26,838 nucleotides of DNA from a virus (taxonomy: Duplodnaviria; Heunggongvirae; Uroviricota; Caudoviricetes): the IMG/VR virus record IMGVR_UViG_2537562220_000008. One strand, given 5' to 3'. A model generated the notes under the pieces. The model saw only the letters and a program-made list of their open reading frames with translations. It made no database searches and was not told the DNA's origin. The position numbers and the translations under genes were made by a program. Below, one piece after another: positions 378 through 26,838 of the stretch. Numbering within the stretch: position 1 is the stretch's first letter; every line of letters begins with the position of its first letter.

Positions 378-432
378 TGGAGCACCTCAAAAACACCATC
401 ATACACTAAATCAGTAAGTTGGCAGCATCACC

Positions 433-1196
433 CAAAGCCCTGACGATCAACATCGACCATTACGGTGGCATTCGGTTTATTGCCTGTCAGATAATAATAA
501 TCAACAACCGTCATACCCTGGGTATATTTCCCCTGTGTTTCCACGCCAACCCAGCGCTCAACAGAGGTAAATAACTCCGGTTTCAACAGCCAGGCGATGG
601 TGCATGGGTCATGCAGTGGTGCGCCGACAAAGCCCCATTTTTCGTCTTTATGATATTCGAGGAAGAAATCCAGCAGTTCGGCAACAATGGTTGAAACAGG
701 GTTGCCAATCGCGCGGAAACGCTCAGTGTCTTCAACGTGGATTTGTGCTTTGTGAGTAACATCCAGACCGGCCATCACCACCGGGATCCCTGACTGGAAG
801 ACAATTTCTGCCGCTTCCGGGTCAACGTAAATATTAAATTCAGCCGCAGGCGTCCAATTACCCAGCCCCATTGCGCCGCCCATAATCACGATACGGGCAA
901 TTTTGCTATGCAGTTCCGGATGGCTATTGAGCAGCAAGGCAACGTTAGTTTGCGGTCCGGTAGACACAATCGTGACAGGTTCCGCACTTTCGCGCAGCGT
1001 TTTCGCCATCAGCTCTACCGCCGTACAGTTTTGCGGTGCGAACGTCGGTTCCGGTAATGCCGGGCCATCCAGACCGCTTTCGCCGTGCACATTGTCCGCG
1101 ATAATCAACTCACGCATTAACGGTTTTACCGCACCGCCTGCTACCGGAATATCGGTGCGATTAAGCAAGGTCAGCATACGCAGAACATTGCGTAAG
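433..1196 (-). pseudogene. rihA: ribonucleoside hydrolase RihA, internal fragment missing both ends
   Basis: ORF 428-1177 ([35 protein letters not shown]...) matches the nucleoside hydrolase RihA from about residue 50 onward as I recall it. The C-terminus is replaced by IS1 (stop lies inside the IS1 repeat); the N-terminal 50 or so codons are absent, with reading-frame identity lost near 1196 and an in-frame stop upstream. Confidence 0.65.
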
Positions 1197-1274: not shown

Positions 1275-1847
1275 TTACATTTCAGGTTGCGTTATGACAG
1301 TCCCAACAGGGTGATAGCGGTAGATCGTTGACAGTCCAATATCATAGATAATTGCCAGCCGCTTTCTGTCATACCCTTTCTGGAGCAATCTTGCGATCTG
1401 CTCATGCTGCTCCTTCGTCAGTTTCGGGCGACGTCCTCCAACTCTTCCTTGTGCTCGCGCAGCAGCCAGTCCTGCCAGCGTGCGCTCAACTATCAGTTCA
1501 CGCTCCATTTCTGCCAGTGCACCCATCATATGAAAAAAGAACCTTCCCATCGGAGTGCTGGTATCGATTGAATCCGTCAGACTGCGAAAATTGACACCTT
1601 TTGCGCGTAGCTCTTCTGTGAGAGCAATGAGGTGTTTCATTCTTCTACCCAACCGATCCAGCTTCCAGACCACCAATGTATCCCCTCTTTTAAGGCACTT
1701 TAAAGCGCGTTTCAGGCCTGGTCGTTCCGACTTGGTTCCGCTCATTTTGTCCTCAAAAATCTGTTCACATCCTGCGCACATTAATGCATTGCGTTGCAAA
1801 TCTATGTTTTGGTCATTTGTTGACACACGTATGTAGCCAATCAGCAT
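1275..1847 (-). CDS. Serine DNA invertase, Gin/Pin/Hin/Cin family
   Basis: 190-aa protein starting [34 protein letters not shown]... with the resolvase/invertase N-terminal catalytic motif (YIRVSTNDQ) and a C-terminal helix-turn-helix region; ATG at 1847 preceded by AAGGGAG. The ORF-track start at 1976 is an upstream in-frame artefact. Confidence 0.9.
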
Positions 1848-1902
1848 TAAAAATACTCCCTTTTGAGTGGTTAAAGTACTGAGATAATGTGGGGAGGATT
1901 TG

Positions 1903-1928
1903 AGAGATAAACGTTGGTTTGGGGGAAG
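1903..1928. promoter_or_regulatory. Candidate gix/hix-like inversion crossover site (left)
   Basis: Read inward to outward: TTCCCCCAAACC-AA-CGTTTATCTCTC, with the AAACC..GTTT core seen in Gin/Hin sites; sits exactly where homology between the two inverted arms ends. Confidence 0.5.
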
Positions 1929-2113
1929 GCTCTGCATTGCCTGTTGGTGTACCGGTTCCATGGCCCACCGCCACACCGCCAGCAGGCTGGTTAAAGTGCG
2001 ACGGGCGCGCCTTTACAAAAGAACAATATCCTGTTCTGGCCAGAGTCTACCCGACCCTCCGTCTTCCCGATTTACGCGGTGAGTTTATCCGTGGATGGGA
2101 CGACGGGCGCAAA
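1914..2113. repeat. Inverted repeat arm A (about 200 bp), partner of 3331-3530
   Basis: Sequence at 1914-2113 is the reverse complement of 3331-3530 (encodes ...GEGSALPVGVPVPWPTATPPAGWLKCDGRAFTKEQYPVLARVYPTLRLPDLRGEFIRGWDDGRK in both genes); similarity decays beyond about 2113. Confidence 0.85.
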
Positions 2114-2431
2114 GTTGATACAGGACGTAAGTTGCTGTCCGCACAAGGGGCAACGCTGTTAAGAACAGCAATGCTGGATTATTATAACCAGGACACTACG
2201 GGAACCTCGGGGATAGTCGGCATGGGATTCAACAATGAAGATTCCATTACAGACCTTCGTGAGGGCAGCTTTAAAATGCCGGACGGGACAACATTCAGCG
2301 ATCCTGTCGTGGCAATGTCAGACAATGGTATGCAGGCTACTATTCTGACCTCTATCAGAAGCGGGTATGCGAAGGGTATCACTGTCAGACCCCGTAGCAT
2401 TGCACTTAATTACATTGTGAGGGCAGTTTAA
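1919..2431 (+). CDS. Alternative tail-fibre C-terminal cassette (Sv'-like), promoterless in the present orientation
   Basis: Its N-terminal 65 aa are near-identical to an internal segment of the tail fibre (3052-4317); its C-terminus differs but ends with the same NYIVRA motif; directly followed by a tail-fibre assembly gene. Confidence 0.7.
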   Translation: MGEGSALPVGVPVPWPTATPPAGWLKCDGRAFTKEQYPVLARVYPTLRLPDLRGEFIRGWDDGRKVDTGRKLLSAQGATLLRTAMLDYYNQDTTGTSGIVGMGFNNEDSITDLREGSFKMPDGTTFSDPVVAMSDNGMQATILTSIRSGYAKGITVRPRSIALNYIVRAV

Positions 2432-3045
2432 TGAGTAACACTGCAGTTCTGGATGAAAACGGTATCGCCACTGTAGCGGGCGATATCACTGTATATCACT
2501 ATGACGAGGAAACCCGGGAATACACCTCATCCTCTGTGGAGTATCTCGCCCTTGGGGTGGGTACTCCGGCACATTCGTGCGCCGATGCACCGCCGGAGGC
2601 AATTTCGGGTTACGTGGTTTGCCGGACTGCCACGCTGAACGGGTGGGAGCATGTGCCTGATCACCGCGGCGAGACGGTATACAGCACGGAGAACGGTAAC
2701 CCTGTTCTGATTACCCAACCGGGTGATTACCCGGCGGACACCACCACAAAACAGCCAGCCACGCCATGGGATACCTGGAACGGTGAGGCGTGGGTAACCG
2801 ATACTGAACGGCAGCGAGCCGCAGAACTGGAGGTTGCCAGACAGCAACGCCAGCAACGGGTGAAACAGGCGATGGCGTCAGTCGATCTTATCAACCTCAA
2901 ACTGCGTGCTGGTCGCAGTCTGACACCAGAAGAAACGGCAAAACTGAACGCCGTGCTGGATTATATCGACGAGCTGAACGCACTGGATATCAGCACGGCA
3001 CCTGAAATCAGCTGGCCGGAAGCGCCACTGGCACTTGCCAGTTGA
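2431..3045 (+). CDS. Tail fibre assembly protein (Tfa/U-like chaperone)
   Basis: 204-aa protein whose C-terminus (...NLKLRAGRSLTPEETAKLNAVLDYIDELNALDISTAPEISWPE) has the conserved Tfa motif; start overlaps the Sv' stop (TAATG). Confidence 0.85.
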   Translation: MSNTAVLDENGIATVAGDITVYHYDEETREYTSSSVEYLALGVGTPAHSCADAPPEAISGYVVCRTATLNGWEHVPDHRGETVYSTENGNPVLITQPGDYPADTTTKQPATPWDTWNGEAWVTDTERQRAAELEVARQQRQQRVKQAMASVDLINLKLRAGRSLTPEETAKLNAVLDYIDELNALDISTAPEISWPEAPLALAS

Positions 3046-3051
3046 ACGGTA

Positions 3052-4317
3052 TCACGCCGCCCTCACGATATAGTTAAACGCGATATTGCGGGGGCGGGTT
3101 ATGTTAAAGAATGCTCCGTTTAATTCGGCTTTTGCGCGACTGTTTGTTCCACCCAGAATTACGTACCACAAATAATCGCTACGGTAATTCCCCGCAAACA
3201 CCTTATCGCCGCCATAGTCAATATTATTTCCGTTACTCATGTACGAGATATCAAGCGAAGAATCGTTATCGTCATGACCGCCGACCAGTGTACCTTTCTG
3301 CCATGAAAGCAACTTACGCCCCTCGTCAATCTTGCGCCCGTCGTCCCATCCACGGATAAACTCACCGCGTAAATCGGGAAGACGGAGGGTCGGGTAGACT
3401 CTGGCCAGAACAGGATATTGTTCTTTTGTAAAGGCGCGCCCGTCGCACTTTAACCAGCCTGCTGGCGGTGTGGCGGTGGGCCATGGAACCGGTACACCAA
3501 CAGGCAATGCAGAGCCTTCCCCCAAACCAAGGTAATTGAGGACATCTTTTATACTGCCCTTAGCGATAATAGCGCGACCAATAGCTGTAAGGGTTGCCAG
3601 CGCTGCGCGGTCTGCTCCGGTAAAATAAGGCAACCGATCTGCTGCAGTGGCAAGTCCTGCCAGAGCAGTGAGCGTGGCATCTGCCGGTTGTTTTCCGTTT
3701 GCCAGATCGTATGCAGCCTTGACCGCTTTCGGTGTGGCGGCCAGTATTTCAGACGTGCTGTTGATGGCACTGCTCAGTTGTACGGTGCCTTTTGCCGTCA
3801 GCGAGGCAGCAGGCACTCCCGTTATCTGACTCCACGGGTGAGTGTGGCTGACGGGCGCCTTGCCGGCTGCAAGGTCGTATGCAGCCTTGACCGCCTTCGG
3901 CGTGGCAGCCTCAGTTTCTGATTGACTGTCCGTGGCGCTGCTCAGTTGTACGGTGCCTTTTGCCGTCAGTGAAGCCGCAGGCACTCCCGTTATCTGACTC
4001 CACGGGTGAGTGTGGCTGGCAGGCGCCTTGCCGGCTGCCAGGTCGTATGCAGCCTTGACCGCTTTTGGTGTGGCGGCCAGCGTTTCAGAGGTGCTGTTGG
4101 TGGCACTGCTCAGTTGGGTGAACCCCTTAGCTGTCAGTGTCGCGTCCGGGTGGTTACGGGAACGTACGTGTTCAGCCAGTGACTGTGCGGCTTCCTCCGT
4201 TTTCTTCTTCAGCCATTTCGTCCTGTTTGCCAGTTGCCGGGGGCTCGATTTGATATCCCGTCTGCACCACCCAGAACCGGATCTGATGTCTCCAGTTGAT
4301 AGATATTTTCTTCCCAC
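3052..4317 (-). CDS. Tail fibre protein (P2 gpH / lambda Stf-like), currently expressed variant
   Basis: Contains tandem ...LTAKGTVQLSSATDSQSETEAATPKAVKAAYDLAAGK... repeats, a ...DATLTALAGLATAADRLPYFTG... segment and a collar-like C-terminal region ending NIAFNYIVRAA. Start is uncertain: GTG at 4317 has no Shine-Dalgarno sequence; an ATG at 4330 in another frame is a possible alternative. Confidence 0.85.
   Translation of the reverse strand: MGRKYLSTGDIRSGSGWCRRDIKSSPRQLANRTKWLKKKTEEAAQSLAEHVRSRNHPDATLTAKGFTQLSSATNSTSETLAATPKAVKAAYDLAAGKAPASHTHPWSQITGVPAASLTAKGTVQLSSATDSQSETEAATPKAVKAAYDLAAGKAPVSHTHPWSQITGVPAASLTAKGTVQLSSAINSTSEILAATPKAVKAAYDLANGKQPADATLTALAGLATAADRLPYFTGADRAALATLTAIGRAIIAKGSIKDVLNYLGLGEGSALPVGVPVPWPTATPPAGWLKCDGRAFTKEQYPVLARVYPTLRLPDLRGEFIRGWDDGRKIDEGRKLLSWQKGTLVGGHDDNDSSLDISYMSNGNNIDYGGDKVFAGNYRSDYLWYVILGGTNSRAKAELNGAFFNITRPRNIAFNYIVRAA
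3331..3530. repeat. Inverted repeat arm B (about 200 bp), partner of 1914-2113
   Basis: Reverse-complement identity with 1914-2113, as read directly from the sequence. Confidence 0.85.
3517..3542. promoter_or_regulatory. Candidate gix/hix-like inversion crossover site (right)
   Basis: TTCCCCCAAACC-AA-GGTAATTGAGGA; inner half-site identical to the left site, outer half-site different, as expected for the two ends of an invertible segment. Confidence 0.5.
3640..4150. repeat. 168-bp tandem repeats inside the tail fibre gene (about 3 copies, 56-aa units)
   Basis: The motif tacggtgccttttgccgtcag recurs at 3781 and 3949 (168 bp apart); the protein shows three successive ...TAKG(F/T)(T/V)QLSSA...AATPKAVKAAYDLA... 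units. Confidence 0.8.
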
Positions 4318-8360: not shown

Positions 8361-9244
8361 CACACACTCCTCGTCAGTATTCTGGCGGCCATTGCACTTA
8401 ATCCCGGAGACATGCGGTTGAATGCTGTTCCGACGGCGTTAAGCTGCCCGGAAACGGTATCCAGAGCACCTGCAATATTTCTTTTGTCCACACCACTCAG
8501 CGCAGACTGTGCCTGCTGTACATACGTGGCTGCTTCGCTGGCTGTTCTGGCCAGACTGATGGCATCGGGCATGGATTCAGAGAGTGCGTTAAACGCCGGA
8601 ACACTTTTCCCCAGAGCCCCGGAGATATTACCCAGTCCGCTCATCAGCCCCGGCACACGGGTCAGTGCGACAACGGGGTTATCCTTCATTTTCTGTGTCA
8701 CCCGAACGGCGCTGATAGTGGTCTGGAGTACAGACTGCGCCTGTTTCGCATAGTTGACGCCGTTGCGGATGAACTGCGCCACCCCGGAAGGTGAAGGAAT
8801 GGCACCGGAGACCGCCCCGACACCCGGGAGCTTCGTGCGTATTGCCGGTGGTTGCAGAGGATTTTTCGGGTCACCGGTGTATTCCCGGAGAGACACGGTG
8901 GCACTGACAGCCAGCACGTTGCCGATACTGTCAGTCTGCTCGCTGGTTGCAGTCACATCGGTAATCACGAACCAGCCGCGATAGTCACCGTTGCCGAAGA
9001 CCAGCGCCAGTGCCTGATGGGCTTTCATGGCTGTTCGCAGTCTCGCCAGCTCCACATCGGGTACACAATAATGCTGATGGAAAACCAGAGTTATCTGGAT
9101 TTCGTCCAGCCTGTCGCCGACGAACTGCAGGCCAGGCTTACCCCCGATGCGGGCATGCTCCGCATAATCGACGCCGAACGTGGCCTCGAAGCCGTCCCAG
9201 TAGGTAATCAGCTCAAACTCAATATCACCCAGTACGGCAAACAT
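8360..9244 (-). CDS. Tail protein, P2 gpU-like / Mu N (DNA circularisation)-like
   Basis: 294-aa ORF immediately downstream of the tape measure (ATGA overlap); N-terminal region (...GKPGLQFVGDRLDEIQITLVF...) resembles gpU-type tail proteins as I recall them. Confidence 0.5.
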   Translation of the reverse strand: MFAVLGDIEFELITYWDGFEATFGVDYAEHARIGGKPGLQFVGDRLDEIQITLVFHQHYCVPDVELARLRTAMKAHQALALVFGNGDYRGWFVITDVTATSEQTDSIGNVLAVSATVSLREYTGDPKNPLQPPAIRTKLPGVGAVSGAIPSPSGVAQFIRNGVNYAKQAQSVLQTTISAVRVTQKMKDNPVVALTRVPGLMSGLGNISGALGKSVPAFNALSESMPDAISLARTASEAATYVQQAQSALSGVDKRNIAGALDTVSGQLNAVGTAFNRMSPGLSAMAARILTRSV

Positions 9245-12200
9245 CAGCGGTACTCCTTACGTTGTTTCTGAGCAAGCAGACGCTCCAGCATTTTTTCCAG
9301 CTCATGCAGACTCATATTCAGGGCACCAGTCAGTCCTGCAGGCGCTGTGGTTTCCCTGCCATTGAGGAAAAACTGAGGATTAAAGCTGACCTGGATACCA
9401 CCAGACGTTCCACCGCCGGTTGCAGCTGCACCACGGCCTGAATATCCGGCAGCCAGGATTTCAGGCGAGGGGATACGGGGAACATCCGGTGTCATCTCAT
9501 TTGCCAGACGTTGCCCTGGTAAAATCGATGCCCGGGTGGAGAGCGGAATAGCGGGCATGGAAGACAAACTATTGATTACGGCTCCGATCGCATTTTTAGC
9601 AGACGACATAAACCCATTGATATCGGGCAACGGCATACTGAAGCGAACACCTGAAGTGTTATCCCGTATTTCTGGCCCCTGAATGCTCACGGGCATTTTG
9701 GGGAGCAGTTCACTGGCCATTCGCTGCCCGGCCAGAGCTGCAAGCGGAGTGGTCCGCTGCAGGCCAATGGCGGCCCCCTGCGCGATATTGTCACCAAAGC
9801 CCATAAACACGCGGCTCGGCGAATGAATGCCCAGCTTTTCGCTGAACCAGCCACTGATGCTGTCGCCCATTCCGGTTACACTGGATTTGAGCGACTCCCA
9901 TTTGTTTTTGATACCGTTAATCAGACCATCGACAAGATGGCCACCGAAGTCGGTAAACTTTGCCGGCAGATCAACACCAAGATATTTCAGCGCAGCTGCA
10001 AAGGCTTTATAGAGCAGACCTGCCGGCGACCAGTTAATCAGCAGCTTACCAGTTCCCGCGATACCGCCGTTAAAGGCTTCCTGAATGTCAGCCCAGCACT
10101 GTTTAAACCAGCTACTGATGCTGTCACCCATTCCGGTTACACTGGATTTGAGCGACCCCCATTTGTTTTTGATACCGTTAATCAGACCGTCGATAAGATG
10201 GCCACCGAAGTCGGTGAACTTTGCCGGCAGAGTAACGCCGAAATATTTCAGCGCAGCCGCAAAGGCTTTATAGAGCAGGCCTGCCGGCGACCAGTTAATC
10301 AGCAACTTACCAGTTCCCACAATGCCGCCGTTAAAGGCTTCCTGAATGTCAGCCCAGCGCTGTTTAAACCAGCTACTGATGCTGTCACCCATTCCGGTTA
10401 CACTGGATTTGAGCGACCCCCATTTGCTTTTGATACCGTTAATCAGACCGTCGATAAGATGGCCACCGAAGTCGGTGAACTTTGCCGGCAGAGCAACGCC
10501 GAAATATTTCAGCGCAGCCGCAAAGGCTTTATAGAGCAGGCCTGCCGGCGACCAGTTAATCAGCAACTTACCAGTTCCCACAATGCCGCCGTTAAAGGCT
10601 TCCTGAATGTCAGCCCAGCGCTGTTTAAACCAACCACTGACAGCCCCCCAGTTGCGGTAGATAAGGTAAGCTGCTGCCGCGACAGCGGTGATAACGAGAC
10701 CGATGGGATTCATCATCAGCGCTCGCCCAATCCAGAGAACGGCACGTGCAGCGCTCATAAAACCGCGAACGAGGCTGCCCGCCAGAACTTTGCTGAGTTT
10801 CAGTCCTCCGCTGGTCAGTCGGCTGAATCCAGTGACAAGCCAGCGTAATTTGCCACCTTCTCCGAGTGCGGTAGTCAGTCGATGCCAGTTGGTCCGGAGT
10901 AAAACAGCATTTTTCCAGACACTTACAAAGGGGGAAATAAGGAGATTCAGCCCCAGTTTGAGACCAACAGTCGCTATCTTAATCGCAAGGAGCGCACTGA
11001 TGAGCTTAAAAGCCCCACTGACAAATTGCGGGTGAGTCGCTACCCAGTGTTTTGCCCCCTGAATGAGTGGAAGCAGTTCCTGAGTCAAAGAAATAAAAGA
11101 TGGAGCTAATTGATCGCCCAGCGTAATTGCCAGATCGCGACTGCTGACCATAAGTGTTTTAGTGGCTTCAAGGGGAGATTTCAGTCGCTGATCGTAAGCA
11201 CTGGCAAGCAAATCGTTATCCGCAGCCCTGAGAGCACCGGCACGGATCTCTCGATATCTGTCCATGTTGGCCAGCATCGGGCGGATAAATGCCATGACCT
11301 GCATATCCGCGAACATATCACCCAGACCAAAGTTTTTCGCCAGAGCCTGAAGTGCCTCATCTCTTGCCGTATCATTCTTTATTTTCATGGCGGATTTGAA
11401 GCCGGCCAGCGCTTCGGGGCTTTTGGCATTGAGGTAACGTTCTATAACACTCAACATCCCTTCAATCGGAGAGATCCCCGCAGCCTTATAACTCGCAATA
11501 GATCCCTGCAAATCAATACCCAGATCAGCAAACTGTTTCTGAGTATCGCGGGCAAAAATTTTGGTAAGAAAGTTTTTAAAATTATTGGCTGCTTCGTCGG
11601 TGGAACCTGCACCGATTTTTGCTATCTGGAGACTGGCCCCGATTTCAGCAACAGCCTCTTTTCCACTGGCAATACCCGCCATCATTGGGGCCAGGGACTG
11701 CATCCACTTGACCTGATCCGGGATTTCAAATGACCCCTGGTCACCGGCATAAGCCATAATATTCTGAACGGCACCAAAATCTCTGGCCGCACCTTTCAGG
11801 GAGTTTTGCCAGACTGCGGCCACTTTTGCCCAGTCCTGAGCAGACGTGCGTGTTGCCGTTGCCGCGCGGGCAATATCCGGCATCAGAAAACCGATATCTG
11901 ACACATTATCAATATTGTCGCTGATGAGTGAACCCACCGCCTCCTGCAGCTCATCCTGATACTGATTGTATTTAAGCGCCCAGCCTTTTATCTGTCCGGC
12001 AAGTGCATCCCGCGTTTTATTGTCATATTTTGCGGTGATCGACATATCAATCATTTTGTCCTGAAAAGACATGGACTGCTGAACGGCAGGGGAAACCGTA
12101 TGATAAACAGTCTGTGCCATGCCATACGCTTCAATCCCCTGACCATACAGCGCCATGCGGTTAGCTTTCAGCGCATCACTGGTAGCGGATGCCGCTGACA

Positions 12201-12456
12201 GACGGCGCTGCTGGCGCTCAATTTGCTCCATGGTGCGGCTTACCCGCAGCAGCTCGCTGTTGAGATGCTGCATCCGGGAAGAACCCAGTTGACCATAACG
12301 TTCTGTTGCACGGGTTAAAGCGTTCTGACGTTCCTGCAGGCGGCGTGAGGTATCGCTCAGGGAATCAAGCGCACGGCGGGGACCGCTCATTGCAGAACGG
12401 AATGTGCTGCCAATCATCCCGCCGATAACAACGCCGACTGAAAACTGTCCCGACAT
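9244..12456 (-). CDS. Tail tape measure protein
   Basis: 1070-aa ORF, the largest in the cluster, helix-rich, downstream of the tail chaperone gene and containing internal tandem repeats; ATG at 12456 preceded by GGAGG. Confidence 0.85.
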   Translation of the reverse strand: MSGQFSVGVVIGGMIGSTFRSAMSGPRRALDSLSDTSRRLQERQNALTRATERYGQLGSSRMQHLNSELLRVSRTMEQIERQQRRLSAASATSDALKANRMALYGQGIEAYGMAQTVYHTVSPAVQQSMSFQDKMIDMSITAKYDNKTRDALAGQIKGWALKYNQYQDELQEAVGSLISDNIDNVSDIGFLMPDIARAATATRTSAQDWAKVAAVWQNSLKGAARDFGAVQNIMAYAGDQGSFEIPDQVKWMQSLAPMMAGIASGKEAVAEIGASLQIAKIGAGSTDEAANNFKNFLTKIFARDTQKQFADLGIDLQGSIASYKAAGISPIEGMLSVIERYLNAKSPEALAGFKSAMKIKNDTARDEALQALAKNFGLGDMFADMQVMAFIRPMLANMDRYREIRAGALRAADNDLLASAYDQRLKSPLEATKTLMVSSRDLAITLGDQLAPSFISLTQELLPLIQGAKHWVATHPQFVSGAFKLISALLAIKIATVGLKLGLNLLISPFVSVWKNAVLLRTNWHRLTTALGEGGKLRWLVTGFSRLTSGGLKLSKVLAGSLVRGFMSAARAVLWIGRALMMNPIGLVITAVAAAAYLIYRNWGAVSGWFKQRWADIQEAFNGGIVGTGKLLINWSPAGLLYKAFAAALKYFGVALPAKFTDFGGHLIDGLINGIKSKWGSLKSSVTGMGDSISSWFKQRWADIQEAFNGGIVGTGKLLINWSPAGLLYKAFAAALKYFGVTLPAKFTDFGGHLIDGLINGIKNKWGSLKSSVTGMGDSISSWFKQCWADIQEAFNGGIAGTGKLLINWSPAGLLYKAFAAALKYLGVDLPAKFTDFGGHLVDGLINGIKNKWESLKSSVTGMGDSISGWFSEKLGIHSPSRVFMGFGDNIAQGAAIGLQRTTPLAALAGQRMASELLPKMPVSIQGPEIRDNTSGVRFSMPLPDINGFMSSAKNAIGAVINSLSSMPAIPLSTRASILPGQRLANEMTPDVPRIPSPEILAAGYSGRGAAATGGGTSGGIQVSFNPQFFLNGRETTAPAGLTGALNMSLHELEKMLERLLAQKQRKEYR
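9853..10635. repeat. Three tandem 261-bp (87-aa) repeats inside the tape measure gene
   Basis: Protein shows three near-identical units SWFKQRWADIQEAFNGGIVGTGKLLINWSPAGLLYKAFAAALKYFGV.LPAKFTDFGGHLIDGLINGIK.KWGSLKSSVTGMGDSIS; the three near-identical antisense ORFs at 9827, 10085 and 10346 are a by-product. Confidence 0.85.
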
Positions 12457-16431: not shown

Positions 16432-16770
16432 TCACACCCCGCGCAGGATACGAATGACGTCGCCTTCACCCCCGGCTTCATCAAGTGCAATACCACAGGA
16501 TTTACCGTCGCCGGACTGCGGCACGGCTCTGGCCTGAGCATCTGACTGAACAGCCACACCACGGCTGACAGCGGCCCCGGCCTCGACAGCAATAATGCCC
16601 AGAACGCTCACCGGCGTGCTGTCGCCGGTAACAGCATCCACTTCGGCAACCCCGAGCGCTGCGGCACCGGCTTTACAGGGGGTATTATCTGCCCCGACAA
16701 AACGCTGCTGTGCCAGTGCTGCCCCTGCCGTTACGGTTGTGATCAGAATGACCTGCTGAGTGGTTCCCAT
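16432..16770 (-). CDS. Small Ala/Gly/Val-rich head protein, Mu gp35-like by position
   Basis: 112-aa ORF immediately downstream of the capsid gene; ATG at 16770 preceded by AAGGAGG. Confidence 0.55.
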   Translation of the reverse strand: MGTTQQVILITTVTAGAALAQQRFVGADNTPCKAGAAALGVAEVDAVTGDSTPVSVLGIIAVEAGAAVSRGVAVQSDAQARAVPQSGDGKSCGIALDEAGGEGDVIRILRGV

Positions 16771-16779
16771 AACGCCTCC

Positions 16780-17733
16780 TTATTTACTGATACCGGTAAT
16801 GAGATACCCGGCATCGCCACCAACCACGGCGACTTTGTAGATATCGGTATAACGGCAGTACTTCACCTTGCCACCGGCTCCGTCGTATTTGTCGGCAACA
16901 GGCATCCCCTTACGACGCAGGGTGTAGCCGAAGGACGGCTCGTTCTCGTCCGCGCTGTCCGCCCCCGGCTGCGGTTTGCCGACATAGTGCAGCATCAGAT
17001 TGTCTCCCCAGATATCCGCCGGCACGCTGTTCTTATCCATTGCCGCTTTCATGGACGGCAGGGAGACTGGGGCACCGATGACGATCTCTTCGATCTGAAA
17101 GAGGTCCTGCAGGATTTCTGTGGTGATGCGCTTGCGTTCGTTGGCTCCGATGGCGGCCTGAATCGCCGGGTGGAACTTCAGCAGCGCCATCACGCCGGCC
17201 CCCATGGTCATCAGGTTAGGACGCAGCCCCGTGGCCGTACGGACCGCTTCCATACCGGCTTCAATCACCCCGATGGGGTCCCCCTTACCACCGGCCCAGC
17301 GATCACTGGCTGTCAGTTTTTTGACGTGCCCGGTACGGTAGACCTTTTCATCCTGAGCCAGACGGGCAGCGATAAGTTAACGGCGCAGGTTCACGCCATT
17401 CGTGGCGCGACGGATGGCCTTGCTCTCTTCGTTAAACATGGACTCCGCCTGCTCGCGATAGTCCACCGGCGCAGCCAGATCGTGTTCACCCAGCACCAGG
17501 TCCAGCGTGCCTGTTTTTTCACGGACCAGAACATTGCTGTCCGCCCCGACGGCACGCTCGGTGTCATATTCCACAAAGGCGGTTTTCCCGAAGGTCGGTA
17601 CACGCACGCCTTCCTTGTCCGTCAGCACGACGGGGAAAATACGTTCGCCGATGAATGCGGCATTTTTATAGCCACGGGCGATACTGGTCAGTACCGGATC
17701 AACGACACGTTTACCTTTTAAGTAATCAGACAT
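16780..17733 (-). pseudogene. Major capsid protein (Mu T-like) interrupted by an in-frame TAA
   Basis: ORFs 17377-17733 and 16780-17268 are in the same frame; the 108 nt between them translate without further stops (LIAARLAQDEKVYRTGHVKKLTASDRWAGGKGDPIGVIEAG), leaving a single TAA at 17377-17379. ATG at 17733 is preceded by AAGGAGAG and follows the I gene. Confidence 0.7.
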
Positions 17734-17747
17734 GCTCTCTCCTTAAA

Positions 17748-18863
17748 TTACAGGCAGCGTGCGACAGCAGCCTCATAGCTGATGCCTTCTTTTTTGGACA
17801 GGGCCACTGCTTTCTGATGCAGGGCCAGACGCTCAGGATCGGCTTCCGCAAACTCTGCCACATCCACCTTCACCGTGTCGCCGACACGCTCTTTTGTGGC
17901 CTGTTCGGCGAAATTCATCACCGGCTCCCCGTCGGAGAGCAATGAACGAAAGGCGGTGGCCAGCGGTGTGCGGCTTTCCCCCTCAGCAAACTCCACCGGC
18001 TTGTCGCCACCGGCGACGGCATCCAGCAGGGCAACCACCACGGAGGAGGCGCGGGGAGCCAGACGGCCCTCTGCGACCAGTTTTTCTGCAAAGGCCACAT
18101 TGTCCTTATGCAGTTGCTCCTGTCTGACCTGTGCATCACGCGCATCGCGATCAGCAGCCTGCTGCTTCAGGCGGCGGTTCTCCTCCTGAAGGGCTTCAAT
18201 CTCTTCTTTTGTCATCGATGATTCCTCGTTACTTGCGGAAGACGGCCCCGGGCCTGTCTCACTGAATTGTGCACCTGCTGCATCCTGCGACAGTGTGTCG
18301 CGGTACGCCTCTTCGCGCAGACTGTTGAGCTGCCATTCCGGCAGGACTTTTTCTGCCTCGTCCAGACTGAAGCGGGCGATCAGAAAATCGCGCAGCTTTC
18401 CCCACAGGGAGGCATTCGTGATGGCCTGCCAGTCGGCGAACTCCACCACACCTTCTTCCTGCTCACTGAAGGACACCTGTTTCAGCCCCTTGACGGAAGG
18501 TGGCTGTGCCCCGAGAAAGCCCACATGGCGAAGGTAGAGCACGCCGGGCTTCGGATTGGACGGTGAATCCGGGAGGTAGAAAGAGGCGGACACTTTTTTG
18601 AATCGTCCGTCGGTGACCATCTCAGCAAACTGCGGGTCCAGCTGGGCAGGCTCTGCCATCAGATCGACGCCGCTGAGCGACAGGGCTTTCACCCAGCCCC
18701 ACGCCGGGTCTTCCGTTCTGGGATGACCAATCACGAGTGGTGCTTCATGGACGGACGGGTCATAGGCTTTCACGCAGGCGGCAAGATCGTCTGGCGTGAA
18801 CGGCAGTTTTTTGCCGTGCATATCGGTATGAGTACCGGCTTTAAAAATGTGAATGGCTGACAT
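17748..18863 (-). CDS. Head protease / scaffold protein (Mu I-like)
   Basis: 371-aa protein with an N-terminal protease-like region and a charged coiled-coil-like region (...EEIEALQEENRRLKQQAADRDARDAQVRQEQL...), directly upstream of the capsid gene. Confidence 0.75.
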   Translation of the reverse strand: MSAIHIFKAGTHTDMHGKKLPFTPDDLAACVKAYDPSVHEAPLVIGHPRTEDPAWGWVKALSLSGVDLMAEPAQLDPQFAEMVTDGRFKKVSASFYLPDSPSNPKPGVLYLRHVGFLGAQPPSVKGLKQVSFSEQEEGVVEFADWQAITNASLWGKLRDFLIARFSLDEAEKVLPEWQLNSLREEAYRDTLSQDAAGAQFSETGPGPSSASNEESSMTKEEIEALQEENRRLKQQAADRDARDAQVRQEQLHKDNVAFAEKLVAEGRLAPRASSVVVALLDAVAGGDKPVEFAEGESRTPLATAFRSLLSDGEPVMNFAEQATKERVGDTVKVDVAEFAEADPERLALHQKAVALSKKEGISYEAAVARCL

Positions 18864-25984: not shown

Positions 25985-26335
25985 TTAAAGCCCCATCGCA
26001 ACAGCCAGGCAGACCGCTGCAACAATCAGTGCACGGCGGATTAACGCAGCAGAAAACACCAGGTGAAGGCCGGTCTGTACCGGGAAACGCCCTTCAGCCA
26101 TCAGCCTGTCGTCATGTTTCAGGTACTGACCGGGACGGGCTTTGGGGAAGAGCGAACGGTAAAGCCAGTAACCCAGCACTGCTGCCAGCGTGATGAGTGC
26201 CAGCTTGTAGATCACAACAGGCAGCTGCTGTGGTGAGACCAGAGCGATGGTGCCCAGCAACAGCACTGAGGTCAGCAGCCAGCCGCTGAGGCGAGGTTTT
26301 TTAACAGGGGGAATGAATTTTTTCAGGTTTTTCAT
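25985..26335 (-). CDS. Holin-like small membrane protein (3 predicted transmembrane helices)
   Basis: 116-aa protein from the ATG at 26335 (AAGGAG 6 nt upstream); hydrophobic segments GWLLTSVLLLGTIALV, VVIYKLALITLAAVLGYWLY and LIVAAVCLAVAMGL; stop is 2 nt before the endolysin start. Confidence 0.55.
   Translation of the reverse strand: MKNLKKFIPPVKKPRLSGWLLTSVLLLGTIALVSPQQLPVVIYKLALITLAAVLGYWLYRSLFPKARPGQYLKHDDRLMAEGRFPVQTGLHLVFSAALIRRALIVAAVCLAVAMGL

Positions 26336-26434: not shown

Positions 26435-26838
<404 letters not shown>

Follow-up and report, generated by a model that had tools for sequence, protein, structure and literature searches.

Cryptic prophages carry multiple lesions, and these lesions are common to related strains. 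The locus described here lies in a BcepMu-like transposable prophage of Escherichia coli; among deposited phages, Escherichia phage PhiKM, which is assigned to Bcepmuvirus, comes closest to it. In this prophage a single in-frame stop codon interrupts the gene for the major head (capsid) protein. We examined whether the stop marks a prophage that has lost the ability to build heads, as a first-pass annotation had proposed, or arose during sequencing and assembly, which the same annotation had named as the alternative.

The errors of the sequencing technology are themselves well described. GGT>GGG is the strongest systematic-error motif in Illumina data, and the same sites are hit again between runs (Meacham et al. 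2011, PMC3295828). In HiSeq data, GGG and CGG rank highest among the motifs that precede errors, T is the most affected base and G is the favoured miscall (Schirmer et al. 2016, PMC4787001). A study whose isolate naming matches that of our strain sampled many colonies per patient in Dhaka and used HiSeq2000 sequencing and the Celera Assembler, with a stated average coverage of >200x (PMC4462620). We infer from the naming scheme that P0298942 belongs to that study, the main text of which does not contain this name.

The prophage and its contig

The window, meaning the whole stretch of 26,838 nucleotides that we analysed, is contig APXR01000088.1 in its entirety, from draft assembly GCA_000357725.1 of E. 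coli P0298942.11. Its main parts are as follows.

1–1196: host flank, with a nucleoside-hydrolase-like ORF and an IS1 end
428–1177, minus strand: inosine-uridine nucleoside hydrolase-like (rih-like) ORF, 249 aa
1197–26488: BcepMu-like transposable prophage, with the late operon in the window and the early region outside it
26489–26838: end of an IS21-family element, with the junction at 26488/26489

Portal_Mu, Phage_Mu_F, Mu Gp27 and Mu Gp36 were found in the window, and transposase and ExeA-like genes are present in two collinear relatives, L003 and PhiKM. Homology to other genomes begins at 1196/1197, which is the end of the prophage, and on the host-flank side an IS1 InsA end lies at the contig edge. 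The insertion site varies among relatives, the flank holding the rih-like gene here, aroA in AH21C062 and other genes in L038. On a sibling contig, L035, the flank runs on into leuS, lptE and holA.

The late genes other than the capsid gene have lengths equal to those in PhiKM and in intact prophages, in agreement with the earlier remark that they look intact. Apart from the IS21-family insertion, which lies outside the late operon, no other sign of decay was seen in the prophage. This insertion is a real lesion of the prophage lineage. The window has it in common with at least four sibling assemblies; it is absent from three relatives of the lineage and is also carried by siblings whose capsid gene is intact. 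The full element, seen in sibling L027, is 1,954 bp long, encodes IstA (340 aa) and IstB (259 aa) and has a 5-bp target duplication; it is inserted 22 nt into a 242-aa phrog_3787 gene that is divergent from the holin gene.

Two further features were seen among the tail genes. The first is a Mu G-segment-like invertible tail-fibre cassette at 1275–4317, in which inverted repeats at 1911–2139 and 3305–3533 (229 nt, 96% complementary) flank a 1,165-nt segment in which lie a gene for tail-fibre assembly and alternative C-termini of the fibre; a gene for a DNA invertase adjoins it (1275–1847, minus strand; phrog_125, E 2e-94). The second is the tape measure gene at 9244–12456, which has an in-frame 261-nt tandem repeat of 3.0 copies at 9845–10640. 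Close relatives have either two copies (983 aa) or three (1070 aa), and siblings with the same IS insertion have a tape measure protein of 983 aa, against 1070 aa in the window. This difference is either real copy-number variation or a collapse of the repeat in assembly.

The capsid gene and its internal stop

The capsid gene lies on the minus strand, together with the two neighbours listed here.

17748–18863, minus strand: head maturation protease/scaffold gene, the upstream neighbour, 371 aa, intact (phrog_976, E 2e-163)
16780–17733, minus strand: major head (capsid) protein gene, 954 nt, giving 317 aa with Glu at codon 119
17377–17733, minus strand: ORF of the N-terminal fragment, 118 aa, ATG start (GenBank ENB51002.1)
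17377–17379, minus strand: in-frame TAA at codon 119, the reverse complement of the plus-strand letters
16780–17268, minus strand: ORF of the C-terminal fragment, 162 aa, putative (GenBank ENB51001.1)
16432–16770, minus strand: capsid cement/decoration protein gene, the downstream neighbour, 112 aa, intact (PF09956, E 2e-13)

Translation of 16780–17733 on the minus strand gives 318 codons in which, besides the terminal stop, only codon 119 is a stop. The first-pass annotation had described a capsid gene split by exactly one in-frame TAA at 17377–17379, with a 118-aa fragment and a second ORF in the same frame, and about 317 aa on read-through; the translation confirms this description, coordinates and lengths included, and adds the minus strand, which the annotation had left unstated. 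The 162-aa ORF begins at the first GTG past the TAA, in the same frame as the 118-aa ORF. The deposited GenBank record lists the two capsid halves as separate proteins, ENB51002.1 and ENB51001.1, and the stop was therefore present in the deposited assembly.

Read through, the protein aligns over residues 1–316 to PHROG 1005, 'major head protein' (E 9e-130), covering positions 2–314 of the 315 in that profile. PF03864 (Phage_cap_E) matches residues 90–203, which span codon 119, at 23.6 bits against a cut-off of 22.9. The sequence of PDB 3bjq (chain 3bjq_A, 'phage-related protein') aligns to residues 8–313 (E 6e-36), and in that alignment Glu119 pairs with Glu. All three matches cross the stop uninterrupted, and the capsid locus is annotated as a single 954-nt CDS in PhiKM, in E. 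coli SK1144 and in RefSeq (WP_001286908.1). Judged from these matches and from the annotation of intact relatives, the 118-aa and 162-aa ORFs are one gene. Homology to two naturally separate genes, which the first-pass annotation had noted as an outcome that would overturn its interpretation, is thus not what was found.

The gene order is that of a Mu-type head module: terminase, Mu portal, Mu F, G, protease (phrog_976), capsid, cement (PF09956), gp36, gp37, sheath and tube. The capsid gene thus follows the protease/scaffold gene and precedes those for decoration and head completion, as expected for a major capsid gene, and the exact 371-aa protease/scaffold protein was found on more than 1000 contigs. 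Both this order and the PHROG and Pfam matches agree with the original assignment as the major capsid gene of a Mu-like prophage, and its alignments place this gene among the BcepMu-type major head proteins as an unexceptional member. An in-frame stop in an otherwise conserved essential gene is one mark of a pseudogene, and such a stop is present here, at codon 119 of 317.

The ancestral codon and the spread of the TAA allele

Alignment with relatives gave GAA (Glu119) as the ancestral codon. The capsid genes of PhiKM and SK1144 have one mismatch to the window, GAA (Glu) against TAA, and the sole base that differs from relatives is 17379, where the window has A on the plus strand and the others have C (GAA>TAA on the coding strand). 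Glu119 is kept in homologues down to 85% identity.

The capsid gene was present in 620 of 5,426 complete E. coli genomes, in up to three copies per genome, and the best matches were all one base off (99.9%, megablast). The 81-nt stretch around the stop was present in 604 of the complete genomes, and none of these matched it exactly (megablast). When contigs were searched with a pattern accepting both alleles, C was found at 17379 in all 31 (14 metagenome and 17 viral), and the TAA allele was not found elsewhere in the phage collection or in viral, metagenome or species-representative genome contigs. Among recorded sequences, only the window contig encodes the 118-aa product with a stop after it. 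The 118-aa sequence returned eight more loci, all of them contigs ending at gene positions 354–356; four of the eight reach base 355, and all four show G.

Two possible readings of the matches to the two fragments were considered and set aside. Contig ends at position 354 might have marked an assembly-graph branch at the variant, but the ends split 4, 2 and 2 across the only three positions that are detectable, which is not significant. Recurrent splitting of the capsid gene was suggested by the 162-aa ORF being a called gene on more than 100 contigs; at those loci most of the neighbouring genes are fragmented too, and the N-terminal pieces are of 113 or 139 aa instead of 118. The separate 162-aa calls (L014–L023) include chromosome-scale contigs. 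The fragmented loci point to indel-ridden long-read assemblies and not to recurrent inactivation of the capsid.

The distribution of the allele also bears on whether the stop could be functional. A programmed read-through, or decoding by a suppressor tRNA, would allow the full-length capsid protein to be made, and the locus does present a clean single in-frame stop and nothing more. However, the stop is conserved in no relative, all of which have GAA, and within the window we found no tRNA gene that could serve as a suppressor. Moreover, UAA is the stop codon that is most efficiently terminated in E. coli. We consider a functional stop of this kind extremely improbable.

Private changes among contigs of the same lineage

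The lineage-specific G, F, portal and terminase proteins of the window were each found on 18–20 contigs, and two names among those contigs are those of isolates P0298942.6 and P0298942.12. Seven relatives were fetched via the G protein. The 317-aa capsid gene is intact in all seven, and four of them have the IS21-family insertion of the window. A Logan contig, ERR1937379_142, is the same as the window over 6,459 nt and differs at 17379 only.

We aligned the window with the seven relatives (eight sequences) over 15.8 kb, leaving out the tape-measure repeats. Every variable column across the 15.8 kb was a singleton and there were zero phylogenetically informative sites, a star-like pattern. The private changes were distributed as follows.

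The window: five private changes, at 12381, 13424, 17379, 24814 and 26161
L034: five private changes
L029, of a different sub-lineage and without the IS: three private changes
L033: two private changes
L027 and L031: no private changes in either
L028 and Logan L030, assemblies from other sources: no private changes in either

The left part of the window contained one further site, 6101, common to the window and L036 only, and no other window-specific changes. Over the roughly 25 kb of prophage the window therefore stands apart at six single bases, five of them private and one found also in a lone sibling, and all six are A<->C or G<->T changes. Besides the stop, they are the following.

6101, plus strand, GGG[T>G]: shared with L036 only; K86N in a gpW-like baseplate protein
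12381, plus strand, GGG[T>G]: private to the window; T26P in the tape measure protein
13424, minus strand, TGG[T>G]: private to the window; synonymous, in the tail tube gene
24814, plus strand, CGG[T>G]: private to the window; T149P in an Rz-like spanin
26161, gene on the minus strand, C>A on the plus strand in the context T[C>A]A: private to the window; D59Y in the holin

The holin D59Y variant was on no other contig in the collection, and the exact 1070-aa tape measure protein was likewise unique to the window contig. A search with the tape measure and holin D59Y variants for a read-based (Logan) assembly of the same isolate returned only the GenBank contig.

Spectrum and sequence context of the changes

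The private changes had an unusual spectrum. A<->C or G<->T transversions made up 14 of the 15 singletons, whereas the window and the more distant L003 and L004 are separated by 30 natural differences, of which 23 are transitions and 6 are A<->C/G<->T. The two distributions differed significantly when all singletons were compared with the natural differences (Fisher p = 3e-6), and also when the five of five in the window were taken alone (p = 0.0014).

The context of the changes was equally skewed. Ten T>G singletons out of 11 came directly after GG, a context with a background frequency of 8.2% (p = 1.4e-10), and GG[T>G] was seen at four sites in the window (6101, 12381, 13424 and 24814). Because the private changes bear the Illumina GG[T>G] motif and have a spectrum unlike that of natural variation, the window contig and several other drafts with 2013-era accessions probably contain consensus errors, at a rate of about 1 per 5 kb in the window.

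The stop itself falls into a second class. A GG-preceded T>G was not found at 17379, where the coding strand reads CGT[G>T]AA and the plus strand GTT[C>A]AC. Four C>A singletons make up this class: 17379 and 26161 in the window, 18377 in L034 and 11311 in L036. All four follow trimers made of G and T only (GTT, GGT, GGG and GTT), against a background of 13.5% (p = 3e-4, post hoc), and they occur only in assemblies that also have GG[T>G] changes. T[C>A]A is the context of both C>A sites in the window. By association and not by direct demonstration, we infer that the C>A class is technical in origin as well, given the common context, the lack of transitions and the lack of such changes in assemblies from other sources.

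A mutT/mutY mutator lineage was considered as a biological source of this spectrum and rejected. Nearly all of the changes are singletons without nested sharing, they occur also in L029, which belongs to another sub-lineage, and the assemblies from other sources have none; the GG context fits a sequencing artefact.

Possible heterogeneity among prophage copies

Complete genomes have up to three copies of the gene, and an assembler that collapsed several prophage copies or subpopulations could have chosen a mutant base for the consensus. The tail region of the prophage is present on two contigs in a sibling assembly, GCA_000356165.2, one of which ends exactly at the prophage end, and this would fit multiple copies or transposition products. 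The assembly of P0298942.11, however, shows no direct sign of a second copy and its contig enters the host flank cleanly; nor would collapse account for the GG[T>G] signature seen at the other private sites. We regard such a collapse as very improbable.

The two tail contigs of GCA_000356165.2, L035 and L037, differ in how they end, since one enters host flank and the other stops at the prophage end. On the latter contig, two single-base indels split gpD into three ORFs. The duplication could represent a second copy, transposition products or redundant, error-prone contigs.

Origin of the stop

We conclude that the TAA is probably a base-call or consensus error in the draft of P0298942.11 and that the capsid gene of the strain itself is probably intact. 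The stop is most likely an error because it is private to one assembly and lies among Illumina-type errors in the same contig. On this explanation the true codon 119 would be GAA (Glu), and a systematic Illumina miscall would have entered the consensus as TAA; the G>T change at 17379 would have the same technical origin as the neighbouring private changes. Two counterpoints should be weighed. The substitution at 17379 falls outside the diagnostic GGT>GGG type, so its attribution to error is made by association and by substitution class, and the stated average coverage of >200x should let only systematic errors, not random ones, into a consensus.

The competing explanation is a real and very recent E119* (GAA>TAA) mutation in one colony of a within-patient clonal ETEC population. 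Such a mutation would account for the stop standing in the deposited consensus, where it is annotated as two proteins, and for its position outside the GGT motif type, and the high average coverage disfavours random errors. G:C>T:A is a genuine class of oxidative mutation in vivo, and a very recent event would be expected to leave a single lesion amid an intact late region. Against these points, the allele is absent from the 604 genomes, the 31 metagenome and viral contigs and all seven lineage contigs described above, and within about 25 kb it stands with five other transversions that are private or nearly so, four of them carrying the Illumina GG[T>G] signature. The remaining change, at 26161, shares its T[C>A]A context with the stop. 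Private changes at about 2e-4 per base, with no transitions among them, would be far above what is expected for clones from the same patient, and the two assemblies from other sources have zero private changes. A real mutation thus appears unlikely.

The view that the prophage is defective or decaying, and likely cannot build heads, is accordingly not sustained by a stop that is private to one draft assembly. The sequencing error that the first-pass annotation offered as its alternative is the better explanation, given the Illumina-type private changes in the same contig.

Implications

If the stop were real, translation would end at residue 118, leaving the prophage with no complete major head protein and no means of assembling heads. 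The 118-residue fragment ends before most of the capsid-profile region and so could not form a capsid subunit. The result would be a head-less but otherwise intact prophage, produced by a very recent event and not by decay; it would be an ordinary private nonsense mutation and, if true, a view of prophage inactivation at its very first step, caught in the course of a human infection. Should the stop instead be an artefact, as is likely, it says nothing about prophage decay, the capsid gene being intact. Either way, the stop is of a known kind, a sequencing artefact or an ordinary private nonsense mutation, and its biological weight is small.

Consensus errors of this sort have a wider cost, since they would yield spurious deposited variants: here the E119* capsid, the D59Y holin, the T26P tape measure protein, the T149P spanin and the K86N gpW. 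Single-base 'pseudogenes' in 2013-era drafts such as this one need read support before they are interpreted biologically.

Comparison with known systems

The major head protein of this prophage is otherwise closely matched among known proteins. PhiKM XRL29392.1 and WP_001286908.1 have all residues the same as the window capsid except at codon 119, and 3BJQ, a Bordetella prophage protein, matches the BcepMu-like major head protein over residues 8–313.

Like the nonsense-inactivated structural genes of defective or cryptic prophages, the capsid gene here, which is essential to the virion, is cut short by one in-frame stop. Unlike in cryptic prophages, the stop is private to one draft contig, independent sequence support for it from sibling isolates or related strains was found in none of the genomes and contigs compared, and the other late genes are identical to those of deposited phages and intact prophages.

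The surrounding changes resemble the known Illumina GGT>GGG errors in being GG-preceded T>G changes, one of which recurs at the same site in two assemblies. Those errors are known at the level of reads, whereas here they are seen in an assembly consensus. The change that creates the TAA differs from the GGT>GGG type, being C>A on the plus strand after GTT.
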